From Nitrosopumilus sp. (GTDB lineage: Archaea > Thermoproteota > Nitrososphaeria > Nitrososphaerales > Nitrosopumilaceae): a stretch of DNA of 64,000 bases. A program made the position numbers and the translations under genes. The DNA lies in the NCBI GenBank assembly GCA_003331425.1, contig QOOS01000005.1, forward strand, positions 22,144-86,143, given 5' to 3'. The notes below the pieces were generated by a model, which ran no database searches, was not told the DNA's origin, and was given only the letters and a program-made list of their open reading frames with translations. Positions 1 through 61,513 of the stretch are shown here, piece by piece; position 1 is the stretch's first letter; each line of letters opens with the position of its first letter.

Positions 1-627
1 TGCACCACCTTCAATCATATTTGCTACTAATGGTGCTTTGATTTCTTTTCCAATTCTTTTCATTTCGCCTAATGATTTTGGTGCTTCAATAAATACAGCA
101 TCTGCACCTGTTTTTTTATTTTCTAGTCCTCTTTCAATTGCTTTATCTAATCCTTCAGTTGCTCTTGAATCTGTCCTAGCTACAATAATGAAATCTTTGT
201 TTTCACGTGCATCAATAGCAGCACCCAATTTTTCAGTATATTCCTCTTGTGATATTACATCTTTACCTTGCATATGTCCACATCTTTTAGGCCATTTTTG
301 ATCCTCAAGAAAAATTCCTGCAGCCCCTGCAGCCTCTAATTCTTTAACTAATTTCCAAACACTTAATGCATTTCCATAACCTGTGTCTGAATCAACAATT
401 AGTGGAACTGAAATTGCGTTTGAAATTCTTCTTGCATTATCAACTGTTTCGGTTGCACCAATAAATCCATAATCTGGCATTCCAAACAATGTTGCTGAAG
501 TTCCATATCCAGTTTGAAACATTGCATCAAATCCAACATTTTCTGCAATTTTAGCTCCAATTGCATCATATACTCCTGGAATTACTAGAGGTTTTTTTGA
601 TTTAATCATACTGGATAATTTTTTCAT
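1..627 (-). CDS. Isocitrate lyase/PEP mutase family lyase (2-methylisocitrate lyase-like), 3' end outside window
   Basis: Manual translation from ATG 627: MKKLSSMIKSKKPLVIPGVYDAIGAKIAE..GFDAMFQTGYGTSA..DSDTGYG..GIFLEDQKWPKRCGHMQGK; KRCGH is the lyase-type active-site loop; frame stays open to position 1. Confidence 0.9.
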   Translation of the reverse strand, partial: MKKLSSMIKSKKPLVIPGVYDAIGAKIAENVGFDAMFQTGYGTSATLFGMPDYGFIGATETVDNARRISNAISVPLIVDSDTGYGNALSVWKLVKELEAAGAAGIFLEDQKWPKRCGHMQGKDVISQEEYTEKLGAAIDARENKDFIIVARTDSRATEGLDKAIERGLENKKTGADAVFIEAPKSLGEMKRIGKEIKAPLVANMIEGGA

Positions 628-2974: not shown

Positions 2975-3406
2975 ATGACTCGAGATGAAAATAAAGAAGG
3001 CATCAAAGGAATGGCCAACCCTGGTCGTTATGGAATTGAAAGAATAGCCTATCTGTTAATGCGTTTAACTGGATTGGGATTGTTAGGCTACTTTATTGCA
3101 CATGTTTATGAAACAAGTAATATTTTACGAGGTAGAATGGGCTGGGATGATTTTCTAGCAATGACTCAAACCACTGAAGGCCATCTCTTTTTAGTTCTTG
3201 TAATTGGTATGTGTGTTTTTCATACTGGAAATGGAATTAGAATTATGTTGGGACATGGTGGTGTTGGTGTGGGAAAACCTGCCAGACCAGATTATCCATA
3301 TAACCCTGCATCCCAAAATTATAGACATAAAATAGGAATTTACTCCTCCATTGTCCTTGCAGCAGTTGCAATGATGTATGGAATGGCAGTAATGTTTGGT
3401 GAATAA
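2975..3406 (+). CDS. sdhC: Succinate dehydrogenase cytochrome b membrane subunit
   Basis: RLTG..F.IAH and VFHTGNGIR heme-His motifs, three TM helices, inside sdh operon. Confidence 0.88.
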   Translation: MTRDENKEGIKGMANPGRYGIERIAYLLMRLTGLGLLGYFIAHVYETSNILRGRMGWDDFLAMTQTTEGHLFLVLVIGMCVFHTGNGIRIMLGHGGVGVGKPARPDYPYNPASQNYRHKIGIYSSIVLAAVAMMYGMAVMFGE

Positions 3407-18367: not shown

Positions 18368-18990
18368 TGAGTTCTGATACTGAAGCAAAAACTGAAACTA
18401 AACCAGCTGCAAAACCAGCTGCAAAACCAGCTGCAAAACCAGCTGCAAAACCAGCTGCAAAACCAGCTGCAAAACCAGCTGCAAAACCAGTAGAATTACC
18501 TGCTTTTGAAAAAAGTATTTCTGATAAAGTTGTTGAAAAATTTGGTGATAAAGTAGAAGTTGAATTTGTTAAAGAAAATAGAGTTGGAATTAAAGCTAAA
18601 AGAGAAGATGTTCACGATGTTGCAGAATTTATTCGAGATGGATTGAATTATGATCATGTAGAATCAGTTTCAGGAGTAGATTATCCACAGGATAAAGAAA
18701 TTGAGGTAGTTTATCATATTGGCTCTTATTCGGACTCATCATTGGCTAAACAAATTCTTGTTTTATCTACTAGAGCACAAAGAGAGGAAAATCCACTTCC
18801 CGGAAAAGATGCAACAAAATTACCTTCTCTTAGAGATATATTCTACAGTGTAGAATTTCACGAAAGAGAAGTTTTTGAAATGTTTGGAGTTTATTTTAAT
18901 GGTCATCCAGATAACAGACGATTACTTTTGCCTGAAGATTGGGCAGATTTACCACCTCTCAGAAAGGACTTTGCAATAAAAGGACGATAG
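18367..18990 (+). CDS. nuoC: NADH-quinone oxidoreductase subunit C with N-terminal KPAA repeat
   Basis: HEREVFEMFG..F.GHPD.RRLLLP..W...PLRKDF. Confidence 0.95.
   Translation: MSSDTEAKTETKPAAKPAAKPAAKPAAKPAAKPAAKPAAKPVELPAFEKSISDKVVEKFGDKVEVEFVKENRVGIKAKREDVHDVAEFIRDGLNYDHVESVSGVDYPQDKEIEVVYHIGSYSDSSLAKQILVLSTRAQREENPLPGKDATKLPSLRDIFYSVEFHEREVFEMFGVYFNGHPDNRRLLLPEDWADLPPLRKDFAIKGR
18400..18490 (+). repeat. Perfect 12-bp tandem repeat (AAACCAGCTGCA)x7 plus partial copy, encoding (KPAA)7KP
   Basis: Read directly from the sequence. Confidence 0.97.
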
Positions 18991-28895: not shown

Positions 28896-29528
28896 ATGAA
28901 TGTAATCCAAAGAATTGATAAAATTATTGAAGAAAGAAGCCTTCTAAAACACCCATTTTATGAAATGTGGTCTGACGGTAAATTAACTCAAGAGTCATTA
29001 GCTGGATATTCAAAAGAATATTTCCAACTTGTAAAAGCTGTTCCTGAATTTATGGCACCAATTATTGAAAAAGCACCTGATTCTGTAGTTTCAGAGCTAG
29101 TTGATAATCAACAAGAAGAATCTGATCACATTAAACCTTGGATTAGTTTTGCAGGAGAACTTGGAATTTCTGAAAATGAATTAATTCCATATTCTGGATT
29201 AGAAAAAACTAATCAAGCTGTATCTGATTTGGCTGAATTAATGAACACTTTTGATAGTGGTGCATGTGCAATGTATGCATTTGAAAAAGAAATTCCAAAA
29301 ATTAGTCAAACAAAACTAGATGGATTATCTGAATTCTATCAAATTACAACTGATAAAGCAACTGAATATTTCAAACTCCATACTGAGGCTGATATTAGAC
29401 ATGCAGCATCTTGGAGAAATATCATTGAAAAATCCAATGCTAATACAAGTGACCTAATTGAAATTGCTGAAAAATCTGTATCAGCACAAAATTTGTTACT
29501 TGATAGTTGTTATGAAGAATACTGTTAA
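28896..29528 (+). CDS. CADD/CT610-like heme-oxygenase-like dimetal oxidase (TenA/PqqC superfamily), putative p-aminobenzoate synthase
   Basis: LLKHPFY..W..G.LT, EE..H, Y.FE..IP.I...K..GL, YF..H.EAD.RH match the CADD pattern. Confidence 0.8.
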   Translation: MNVIQRIDKIIEERSLLKHPFYEMWSDGKLTQESLAGYSKEYFQLVKAVPEFMAPIIEKAPDSVVSELVDNQQEESDHIKPWISFAGELGISENELIPYSGLEKTNQAVSDLAELMNTFDSGACAMYAFEKEIPKISQTKLDGLSEFYQITTDKATEYFKLHTEADIRHAASWRNIIEKSNANTSDLIEIAEKSVSAQNLLLDSCYEEYC

Positions 29529-29569
29529 TCTCATAACATTTTATACCTCAGAAAATTTTTGTTATTTTA

Positions 29570-29643
29570 GGGCCCGTAACTCAGCTTGGTAGAGTAACCG
29601 GCTCATAACCGGTGAGCCAAGGGATCGAAGCCCTTCGGGCCCA
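29570..29643 (+). tRNA. tRNA with CAU anticodon, probably tRNA-Ile2 (agmatidine-modified) rather than Met
   Basis: Acceptor GGGCCCG/CGGGCCC with A73, anticodon arm ACCGG-CTCATAA-CCGGT; lacks initiator A1:U72 and three G:C pairs; GGGCCC acceptor resembles archaeal Ile2 (isotype is inference). Confidence 0.85.
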
Positions 29644-29685
29644 TTTTTTCAATTAGTTTTAAAATGAGTTAATACAAAAATTACT

Positions 29686-29750
29686 GGCTGCAATGAAGAA
29701 TCAGAGTTATATCTGAAATTGATGATTGGAAGGCATTTGTCTGAGCTGCC
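29686..29750 (+). ncRNA. Box C/D 2'-O-methylation guide sRNA
   Basis: C box ATGAAGA 29693-29699, D' CTGA 29713-29716, C' TGATGA 29720-29725, D CTGA 29741-29744, terminal stem GGCTGC/GCTGCC; TTTTAAAA at 29657-29664 upstream, T-rich tract downstream. Confidence 0.8.
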
Positions 29751-29755
29751 TTAAT

Positions 29756-30373
29756 TTATTTACTAATTTGCTTCTTTACCTTATCTAAAATTTCTACATC
29801 AATCATTTTCTGTTCATATAATATTTCTGTAATTTGTAAAATGTTTAGAATTGAGTGCATTTTTACTCCAAGTTCTTCCAAGGCTTCAGTCGCTCCTTCC
29901 ATTCTATCTACAATTACATATGCATCTTTTACTGGAACATTTACTTCTGTTAGTGATTTGATTGCATTTACAACTGAACCTCCAGTAGTTGCAACATCAT
30001 CTATCATCACAACTTTCATACCGTCATGAATTTTGCCTTCAACTGATTTTGAAGTTCCATAATCCTTTGGTTTACTTCTTACATAGATTAGTGGTTTTAC
30101 TGTTTCAATTGCTAATGCTGAAGCAATAACTAACCCTCCGGTTGGTACAGAAACAATACTTTCAAAATTTTCCAGTCCTATGTCTTCCGTTATCTGATTT
30201 TCGAGATATTTTACCATCATCCTAAATTCATGAGGATAACTAGGAACTAATCTTAAATCAACATAATACGAACTACTTTTCCCACTGGCTAGTGTAAAGT
30301 CTCCAAACTTAATTATCTCTTTTTGATGTAAAAAGGTCACAAATTCTTTCACAAACTCCATATCAAAATTCAC
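29756..30373 (-). CDS. pyrE: Orotate phosphoribosyltransferase
   Basis: FTLASGKSSSYYVDLR, VRSKPKDYG, VMIDDVATTGGS. Confidence 0.95.
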   Translation of the reverse strand: MNFDMEFVKEFVTFLHQKEIIKFGDFTLASGKSSSYYVDLRLVPSYPHEFRMMVKYLENQITEDIGLENFESIVSVPTGGLVIASALAIETVKPLIYVRSKPKDYGTSKSVEGKIHDGMKVVMIDDVATTGGSVVNAIKSLTEVNVPVKDAYVIVDRMEGATEALEELGVKMHSILNILQITEILYEQKMIDVEILDKVKKQISK

Positions 30374-36047: not shown

Positions 36048-36142
36048 AGTTGTAATTCGATATTTTCTTTGCTTTATACCTATTTTGAGTTGATTTCAAA
36101 TCTGTCGTTACCTTAATACATTAGAATTATGGAATGATTTTC

Positions 36143-36260
36143 AAGCCGGCCATAGCGTCAGGGTGCGACCTAATCCCGTTCCGAACTTAGAAGTCAAACC
36201 TGATGTCGCTGTTGTGCTACTAAGATGCGAGAGCTCTTGGGAAGCAACAGTGCTGGCATT
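36143..36260 (+). rRNA. rrf: 5S rRNA (stand-alone)
   Basis: GGCCATAGCG..CCCGTTCCGAAC..GAAGTCAAACC..GCGAGAG; terminal helix GCCGGC/GCTGGC; ends approximate. Confidence 0.93.
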
Positions 36261-36315
36261 TTCTACTTTTCAATCAATCTTTTAATATCCATGTTATCTG
36301 ATTGAATTGATTTCA

Positions 36316-60859: not shown

Positions 60860-61513
60860 TTAGTCTGCTTTTGGTGCTTCAGCAGGAGTTGCTTCAGCAG
60901 GAGTTGCTTCAGCAGGAGTTGCTTCAGCAGGAGTTGCTTCAGCAGGAGTTGCTTCAGCAGGAGTTGCTTCTTCACCTTCAGCAGATACTTCTGCTTTTGG
61001 TGCTTCAGCCTTTGTTTTTTCTAACATTTCTGGAATTTTGGATTCAGGGCTAAATTTAACGCTGCCTTCTTCTGCAACTGTTACTGTATATGATGGGATA
61101 TCGACTTTTCTATCTCCAACCATGATGTGACCATGAATAACAGCTTGTCTTGCTTGATATGGTGTTTTAAATCCTAATTTTTTTGAAACGATTGTTTGTA
61201 ATCTTCTTGCAAGTAAATCAGTTGGTTTTAGATTAAGTACATCATCTAATGATGCATTTTCTGATACTAAACCGATTCTTGATAATGATTTTAGTAATAT
61301 TGGTTCTTTTTCTGCTCTGGCTTCTTGTGTCAATGCAAGCAATGATCTTGCTTGTTGTCTTACACGTGATAATTCTGTGTGAGCTTTCCATAATTCTCTT
61401 TTAGTTCTTAATCCAAATGTACCAAGAGTTTGTAACTCATCCATTTTTAATTCATAATTAAGAGGTCGCTTTGGTTTACGCCAAACTTTTCGTGGATATT
61501 TTGGATCTCCCAT
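60860..61513 (-). CDS. rps4: 30S ribosomal protein S4 (uS4) with acidic repeat tail
   Basis: MGDPK, FGLRTKRELW, RRLQT, ARQAVIHGHI. Confidence 0.96.
   Translation of the reverse strand: MGDPKYPRKVWRKPKRPLNYELKMDELQTLGTFGLRTKRELWKAHTELSRVRQQARSLLALTQEARAEKEPILLKSLSRIGLVSENASLDDVLNLKPTDLLARRLQTIVSKKLGFKTPYQARQAVIHGHIMVGDRKVDIPSYTVTVAEEGSVKFSPESKIPEMLEKTKAEAPKAEVSAEGEEATPAEATPAEATPAEATPAEATPAEATPAEAPKAD
60875..60970 (-). repeat. Perfect 15-bp tandem repeat x6 plus partial copy, encoding (ATPAE)6 in the uS4 tail
   Basis: Unit GCTTCAGCAGGAGTT on + strand read directly. Confidence 0.97.

Follow-up and report, generated by a model that had tools for sequence, protein, structure and literature searches.

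A candidate dual-guide box C/D sRNA in a marine Nitrosopumilus with two predicted methylation targets in helices H69–H71 of 23S rRNA

The window analysed here is a 64,000-nt stretch of DNA from Nitrosopumilus sp. with a GC content of ~0.32, and many marine metagenomes contain 98–99% of the stretch's sampled words. The element under study is intergenic, no ORF of at least 40 aa overlapping positions 29686–29750, and it lies between a tRNA gene and pyrE as given in the preliminary description, the tRNA being tRNA-Met(CAT) and pyrE being convergent (Table 1). The tRNA is directly followed by a T6 run at 29644–29649, and the 3′ end of the element is located 5 nt from the pyrE stop codon. In identical loci, the called pyrE gene encodes 201 aa and starts four codons later than the 205-aa ORF of the window, and the pyrE genes of relatives are annotated by JGI as orotate phosphoribosyltransferase. 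Where pyrE is 95% identical, the relatives belong to marine group I Thaumarchaeota and are represented by single-cell genomes, and the host is accordingly placed in the marine Nitrosopumilaceae. A search for pyrE homologues returned only relatives that are at least 94% identical and no other genera. The exact sequence of the TenA-like protein encoded upstream of the tRNA was found in 410 blocks of an assembly collection, including TARA scaffolds. The window has a stand-alone 5S rRNA gene (78 bits) at 36142–36261 (+) and no 16S or 23S gene, which fits an unlinked 5S arrangement.

Table 1. Coordinates of the candidate sRNA gene, its parts and its neighbours in the window.
Feature	Coordinates	Strand	Basis or remark
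TenA/THI-4 / haem-oxygenase-like protein	28896..29528	+	PF03070, PF14518; between tRNA-Glu and tRNA-Met
tRNA-Met(CAT), upstream neighbour	29570..29643	+	ARAGORN, Rfam
TATA-like element TTTTAAAA	29657..29664	+	Centred ~26 nt upstream of 29686; putative promoter
Candidate box C/D sRNA gene, whole, 65 nt	29686..29750	+	Box layout, conservation footprint
Terminal stem, 5′ half, GGCUGC	29686..29691	+	Pairs with 29745–29750
Box C, AUGAAGA (RUGAUGA with U5>A, one departure)	29693..29699	+	Sequence
D′ guide spacer AUCAGAGUUAUAU, 13 nt	29700..29712	+	29701–29710 pair with 23S GUAACUCUGA; N+5 base is 29708
Box D′, CUGA	29713..29716	+	Sequence
D′–C′ loop, AAU, 3 nt	29717..29719	+	Sequence
Box C′, UGAUGA	29720..29725	+	Sequence
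D guide spacer UUGGAAGGCAUUUGU, 15 nt	29726..29740	+	29730–29739 pair with 23S CAAAUGCCUU; N+5 base is 29736
Box D, CUGA	29741..29744	+	Sequence
Terminal stem, 3′ half, GCUGCC	29745..29750	+	Lineages diverge from 29751 on
pyrE, orotate phosphoribosyltransferase, convergent downstream neighbour	29756..30361	-	ORF; PF00156

The upstream element noted in the preliminary description is the octamer TTTTAAAA, which lies ~26 nt from the sRNA, where archaeal TATA boxes are usually found; the octamer is invariant in the 15 haplotypes described below, and the bases right after it vary. The T-tract that had been noted downstream turned out to be merely TTAATTTATTT, which is unconserved and overlaps the pyrE stop codon.

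On the forward strand, positions 29686–29750 read GGCUGC-A-AUGAAGA-AUCAGAGUUAUAU-CUGA-AAU-UGAUGA-UUGGAAGGCAUUUGU-CUGA-GCUGCC. Boxes C and D are located near the ends, the internal boxes D′ and C′ are separated by a short loop, and a terminal stem is present, as in the box C/D class; the conserved block is 65 nt long from end to end, within the range of ~50–70 nt for archaeal box C/D sRNAs (PMC7994747). The four boxes occur in the order given previously, but the correct spacing claimed for them does not hold, because the D′ and D spacers are 13 and 15 nt long instead of the canonical ~12 nt (10–12 nt), a departure of degree, and box C also departs at one position. Tran et al. 2005 reportedly found 12-nt spacers to be optimal for archaeal sRNPs. 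Each guide nevertheless pairs over 10 nt next to the D or D′ box, and the extra UUGG of the D spacer, which adjoins box C′, would add at most three weak pairs past a bulged G. The terminal stem was also described correctly, and comprises 6 positions, of which 5 are paired and one, 29689/29747, is a U.U mismatch; it is present in both the MFE and centroid folds. The fold energy of the whole sRNA is no better than that of shuffled sequences (z = -0.16). Guide RNAs normally fold weakly overall, and such a weak fold is expected because the guides must stay single-stranded. In the MFE fold, the D′ guide region (29700–29716) can pair with its own D′ box through 5 bp (UCAGA/UCUGA), because the rRNA target itself contains CUGA.

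An arrangement of this kind could also be a chance or decayed motif without any RNA product, the conservation of which would reflect, for example, 3′-end formation of pyrE or tRNA-Met; the short distance to the pyrE stop codon and the unexceptional fold energy are compatible with such an origin, but the weak fold is normal for guide RNAs and the box layout is seldom expected by chance. A scan of the window for C(<=1 mismatch)-10..14-CUGA-2..9-C′(<=1 mismatch)-10..15-CUGA recovered 29686–29750, the sole other hits being an artefact in a 15-nt tandem repeat, and the same layout occurred with a mean of 0.025 hits in 40 Markov shuffles of the window searched on both strands. A relaxed search for further C/D sRNAs in the window gave only chance-like matches inside coding regions, which were rejected. 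As for the repeats of the window, a ribosomal protein uS4-like ORF at 60860–61513 (-) contains a perfect tandem repeat of 15 nt x 6.4 (60875–60970) encoding an (EATPA)x6 C-terminal tail, and a perfect tandem repeat of 12 nt x 7.6 (AAACCAGCTGCA) at 18400–18490 is probably a coding low-complexity repeat.

In the Rfam search, no family reached its threshold for 29686–29750. Below threshold, the whole element was aligned to several archaeal and eukaryotic C/D families, of which sR14 scored best (20.9 bits vs 38). The alignments to sR14, sR11, sR20, sR17, sR1 and snoPyro_CD are full-length and extend across boxes C, D′, C′ and D, but the likeness, sub-threshold in every case, is confined to the boxes, and the guides of these families are unlike those of the window sRNA.

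The conservation of the locus was assessed with 15 distinct haplotypes of the region 29440–29900, collected from 36 loci of close relatives (pyrE 94–100% identical). Among these haplotypes, none of the 65 sites of the sRNA is variable, whereas variable sites amount to 11/41 in the spacer upstream of the tRNA, 11/42 in the tRNA-to-sRNA spacer, 3/5 in the five bases downstream of the sRNA, 37/145 in the pyrE 3′ end and 2/74 in the tRNA; the difference between the sRNA (0/65) and the flanking noncoding sites (25/88) is significant (Fisher p = 2e-7). Variation ends at 29683–84 and resumes at 29751, and the invariant block thus coincides with the ends of the sRNA and not with those of pyrE or the tRNA, which speaks against a chance motif kept for the sake of its neighbours. 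Wider sampling gave two variants within the sRNA, a T>C change at the mismatched stem position 29689 in a contig from an RNA run and a 2-nt deletion in the D′–C′ loop, both at positions without a predicted role.

A diverged copy in a different upstream context, which also argues against a chance motif, was found in contigs of a second lineage from three metagenomes. These contigs match 29685–29716 with 31/32 identical positions and then continue with TTAATGATGTAAAGGCATTTGACTGAGCTG. The second thaumarchaeal lineage shares boxes C, D′ and D, the stem, the D′ guide and the core of the D guide with the window sRNA and differs in the loop, box C′ (UGAUGU), the D spacer (12 nt) and the upstream context; a TATA-like sequence, ATTTTAAT, stands at the same distance from the sRNA as TTTTAAAA. 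A guide RNA gene that carries its own promoter would be expected to show this pattern.

Metatranscriptome contigs (X25-X28, X29, X30, X35, X36) span the sRNA locus but run into both neighbours, so that DNA or read-through is a possible source, and they give no transcript boundaries at the sRNA locus; the lack of a discrete transcript among these contigs is compatible with a chance motif. The contigs come from standard metatranscriptomes, and the locus was found in no size-selected library. Contig ends at exactly 29750 were considered as RNA ends and rejected, as they are graph branch points where lineages diverge. A very high depth of the tRNA in run X39 was likewise rejected as a sign of expression, since its words are shared among many organisms.

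For the analysis of the targets, 23S genes were gathered independently of the guides through a scan of genome contigs for a marine-group-I 16S motif, which yielded 119 rRNA-operon loci from named Nitrosopumilus, Nitrosarchaeum, Nitrosopelagicus and related genomes. Six of the loci (L084, L089, L092, L096, L126 and L174) carry the thaumarchaeal 16S motif under Serratia, Poseidonia, Desulfobacterota, Thermoplasmatota, SAR324 and Desulfobacterales genomes or MAGs, and L092 and L174 additionally contain the thaumarchaeal H69–H71 sequence, which suggests errors of binning or contamination in public records. All 52 family 23S sequences that reach H69–H71 read GAGUAACUCUGACUCUCUUAAGGUAGCCAAAUGCCUUG. 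The 52 loci extending to H69 likewise all read GGGAGUAACUCUGACUCUCUUAAGGUAGCCAAAUGCCUUGU, followed by CGGG in 51 and AGGG in one. Both target sequences given in the preliminary description are present in every one of the 52 loci in the order GUAACUCUGA, 16 nt, CAAAUGCCUU. The host's own 23S gene lies outside the window, and we infer its target region from this family-wide identity.

The D guide forms 10/10 Watson-Crick pairs with CAAAUGCCUU through guide positions 2–11 counted from box D (duplex energy -14.6 kcal/mol at 37 °C), and the D′ guide forms 9 Watson-Crick pairs and one G.U pair with GUAACUCUGA through positions 3–12 (-13.4 kcal/mol at 37 °C). The guide complementarity claimed earlier is thus real, but it comprises only 10 nt per guide, and one D′ pair is G.U rather than A-U. 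Each guide has the at least about 9–10 bp covering the fifth nucleotide upstream of box D or D′ that a guide–target pair of this class requires. Alignment to the annotated E. coli 23S (rrl) bore out the predicted N+5 nucleotides, which correspond to E. coli A1938 for the D guide and A1912 for the D′ guide, and the A1912 equivalent lies 26 nt upstream of the A1938 equivalent, in line with the ~26 nt estimated before.

In an unbiased target scan covering one full operon (16S and 23S, with boundaries from Rfam) together with the 5S and the six tRNAs of the window, the H70/71 site of the D guide and the H69 site of the D′ guide rank first. The six tRNAs and the 5S of the window showed no pairing of more than 7 bp with the guides. 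Shuffled guides equalled the D score anywhere in the 4.5 kb of rRNA in 39/2000 cases (2%) and the D′ score in 148/2000 cases (7%), so that each guide alone is only modestly significant (0.02 for D, 0.07 for D′). Within 100 nt of the D site, shuffled D′ guides equalled the D′ score in 412/200000 cases (0.2%), and the chance of 2% for D combined with that of 0.2% for a nearby D′ site therefore gives a joint probability of ~4e-5. That both guides hit neighbouring rRNA sites by accident is thus hardly to be expected of a chance motif, and an origin of this kind appears highly improbable when it is taken together with the box layout and the conserved block. The two-target pattern was also searched in viral contigs, where the 58 matches were all chance matches in protein-coding sequence, none in rRNA, and were rejected; two scans of viral contigs for the sRNA itself gave none, or one coding chance match.

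The second of the two predicted methylations is the less certain one. The D′ duplex is offset, with position 2 mismatched and position 3 forming the G.U pair, and for this reason some weight is left to a genuine sRNA of which only the D guide methylates, the D′ guide being inactive or serving as a tether or chaperone for H69. Such a division of labour would agree with the spacers of 13 and 15 nt, off the 12-nt optimum, and with the 7% of shuffled D′ guides that match rRNA equally well somewhere; the D guide, moreover, is common to many sRNAs, and the D′ guide is confined to this lineage, its relatives aiming D′ elsewhere, at the H69 5′ strand (~G1906) or at A1913. On the other hand, neither guide varies among the 15 haplotypes and the D′ guide is retained in the second lineage, shuffling yields an equal D′ site no further than 100 nt from the D site in only 0.2% of cases, a D′ spacer of 13 nt likewise occurs in Sac-sR125, and A1912 lies within a reported archaeal methylation hotspot (PMC4644070). 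H68–71, and the surroundings of A1912 in particular, are such hotspots and lie at the subunit interface (PMC4644070; PMC7994747). On balance, a particle with a working D guide only is considered unlikely.

A different or additional substrate of the D′ guide, be it another 23S site, a tRNA or an mRNA, was also weighed. The sequence AUAUAACUC at 23S ~468 is perfectly complementary to D′ guide positions 1–9 (9/9 Watson-Crick, -9.6 kcal/mol), and it occurs in 5/79 family loci, all of Nitrosopelagicus type. It is found in L105 at 3181–3196 (23S ~460–475) and at the same place in L109, L139, L170 and L186, in a variable stretch of domain I. In contrast, other Nitrosopumilaceae, including the type of the window, read AUAUUUCUC or otherwise at ~468. 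The assignment of the window organism to a 23S type was based on depth in four metagenomes (X16, X6, X12 and X7): the window contig has depths of 203.5, 41.2, 13.4 and 23.7, the 23S type with AUAUUUCUC has 203.5, 52.8, 14.1 and 19.2, and the Nitrosopelagicus-type 23S has 0, 21.8, 2.9 and 10.6, respectively. The depth of the window contig thus tracks the AUAUUUCUC type and not the Nitrosopelagicus type. Three loci (L106, L141, L167) represent the variable-region type of the window organism and have the same H69–H71 sequence. With AUAUUUCUC, the D′ duplex at ~468 would yield only -4.9 kcal/mol, and 23S ~468 was accordingly rejected as a D′ target in the window organism on the grounds of depth matching and duplex energy. 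Since no tRNA or 5S of the window offers more than the short pairings noted above, a D′ guide directed to substrates other than H69 is scarcely to be believed. If the Nitrosopelagicus-type clade has the same sRNA, a second D′ target at ~468 would be possible there.

Among known systems, the closest counterparts of the window sRNA are Sac-sR125 of Sulfolobus acidocaldarius and IHOsR109 of Ignicoccus hospitalis, which are RNA-seq-supported sRNAs (Dennis et al. 2015, PMC4644070, supplement). Both are dual-guide box C/D sRNAs of 57–65 nt with an identical D guide core, AAGGCAUUUGU, adjoining box D. The window sRNA has the D guide AAGGCAUUUG directly adjoining box D and aimed at A1938, that is, the 10-nt core plus the U at position 1 of Sac-sR125 and IHOsR109. 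Sac-sR125 further resembles it in box C plus two bases (AUGAAGAAU) and in its 13-nt D′ spacer, and the box C variant AUGAAGA followed by AU is seen both in Sac-sR125 and in 5/36 of the metagenomic relatives described below. The D′ guides of Sac-sR125 and IHOsR109 (UUACCCCCGAAC and GUACUCCCGGAG) also aim at H69, as that of the window does, but at its 5′ strand, where, to judge from the guide sequences, they would select the G1906 equivalent; pairing of the window D′ guide is displaced by six nucleotides in the 3′ direction and selects A1912, in the loop. The two known sRNAs also differ in having a 12-nt D spacer, in contrast to 15 nt in the window sRNA, and their hosts are hyperthermophilic Crenarchaeota, whereas the window host is a mesophilic marine thaumarchaeon.

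Further relatives were obtained from metagenomes with the pattern D′-loop-C′-(0–3 nt)-AAGGCAUUUGN-D, which on purpose excludes the 4-nt extension of the window sRNA. The scan returned 36 loci (L188–L223) with the D guide GAAGGCAUUUGN on contigs with a GC content of 0.34–0.56, and in all 36 a box C occurs 12–13 nt upstream of D′, though it is absent from the pattern. These sRNAs have the same C′-guide-D module as the window sRNA, but their D spacer is 12 nt in 36/36 and their D′ spacer 12 nt in 33/36, compared with 15 and 13 nt in the window. Most of their D′ guides read xUACCUCCGGxx and, judged from the guide sequences, would be directed to the H69 5′ strand at the G1906 equivalent. In two of the loci, L206 and L211, the D′ guide contains CUCAGAGUU as in the window sRNA, and the guide, CUCAGAGUUGGA, is the window guide with its register moved by one nucleotide, which directs it to the A1913 equivalent. 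These two (L206 1707–1735 and L211 4551–4579, GC ~0.55) combine the common D guide with the D′ guide GCUCAGAGUUGGA directed to the A1913 equivalent, which we take to be yeast Am2256.

In eukaryotes, the same guide–target pair is found in snR13 of yeast and SNORD15/U15 of vertebrates. These RNAs are longer than the window sRNA. To our knowledge, no H69 guide is paired with the A1938 guide in snR13/SNORD15 RNAs. By the offset between yeast and E. coli numbering, yeast A2281 is the equivalent of E. coli A1938. Yeast snR13 guides Am2280 and Am2281 in H70/71 (PMC4174444), and the D-guided site had rightly been described as the snR13 site, Am2281 being guided by snR13 (PMC4174444). The SNORD15 consensus (RF00067) ends with GAGGCAUUUGUCUGA, and the window sRNA with AAGGCAUUUGUCUGA, 14/15 bases being matched. 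The score against RF00067 is 19 bits vs a gathering threshold of 75 and covers the last 40/146 model positions, with only the guide and box D aligned. The window sRNA would thus work like SNORD15/snR13 at the A1938 site, yet it is not a member of the RF00067 family. The likeness to snR13/SNORD15 may reflect either common descent or convergence on an invariant target.

Taken together, the anatomy, the complementarity to 23S rRNA, the conservation and the homology of the D guide support the reading of 29686–29750 as a box C/D sRNA gene, and from these we infer transcription, RNP assembly and the methylations. The dual-guide interpretation offered in the preliminary description is upheld, and the conservation, the published homologous sRNAs and the conserved putative promoter element lend it independent support. 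The locus is very probably a genuine sRNA gene, and it probably encodes a functional box C/D sRNA with two predicted 23S methylations. The predicted D-guided methylation at the A1938 equivalent is likely, and the predicted D′-guided methylation at the A1912 equivalent is moderately likely.

Based on the established mechanism of the family, a probable course of action can be proposed for this sRNA. The gene would be transcribed from its own TATA-box promoter, and the transcript would be trimmed to ~65 nt. The terminal stem would bring boxes C and D together to form a kink-turn, boxes C′ and D′ would form a kink-loop, and both would be bound by L7Ae before Nop5–fibrillarin joins. In the family, L7Ae, Nop5 and fibrillarin act in this way, each guide pairs over ~10 bp, and the ribose opposite the fifth guide base is methylated (PMC7994747); fibrillarin is near-universal in archaea (PMC8481954). 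The D guide (29730–29739) may then pair with CAAAUGCCUU of nascent 23S rRNA at the H70/H71 junction and bring fibrillarin to the A1938 equivalent (yeast A2281), and the D′ guide (29701–29710) could pair with GUAACUCUGA in H69 and select the A1912 equivalent. As the two target sites are 26 nt apart, one particle could hold both, and it may also help the intersubunit-bridge region H69–H71 to fold.

Other archaea and eukaryotes already provide examples of the class, the mechanism and the A1938 guide–target pair. What appears to be new here is that the H69/H71 dual-guide sRNAs have a thaumarchaeal member, whose D′ guide is aimed at another nucleotide and whose D spacer is of unusual length. A full-text search of open-access papers found no description of C/D box sRNAs in Nitrosopumilus or in other ammonia-oxidising archaea or Thaumarchaeota, and this sRNA has seemingly not been described before in Thaumarchaeota. 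Most of the box C/D guide RNAs catalogued so far are from thermophilic archaea, and mesophiles possess few. Two more far-reaching and doubtful proposals would be that the A1938 guide is an ancient module, inherited from the common ancestor of Thaumarchaeota, Crenarchaeota and eukaryotes (snR13/SNORD15) and not re-invented, and that thaumarchaeal sRNPs tolerate a eukaryote-like asymmetric box spacing (15-nt D, 13-nt D′) forbidden by the 12-nt ruler of thermophiles. If the ancient-module proposal were true, a mesophile with probably few sRNAs would have kept the A1938 guide in its minimal essential set.

In practical terms, the analysis adds an ncRNA annotation that is missing and could seed a new Rfam-type family, and with its 15-nt D spacer the sRNA lends itself to testing the 12-nt spacing rule in a natural case. 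The host is among the most abundant archaea of the ocean, as is reflected by the 410 blocks of the assembly collection in which the neighbouring gene occurs. Modification in Sulfolobus, Ignicoccus and eukaryotes affects the same H69–H71 sites as those predicted here. The sRNA may also indicate which sites a streamlined mesophile keeps. A conserved guide with two predicted methylations in H69–H71 would provide a testable entry into rRNA modification in this group.
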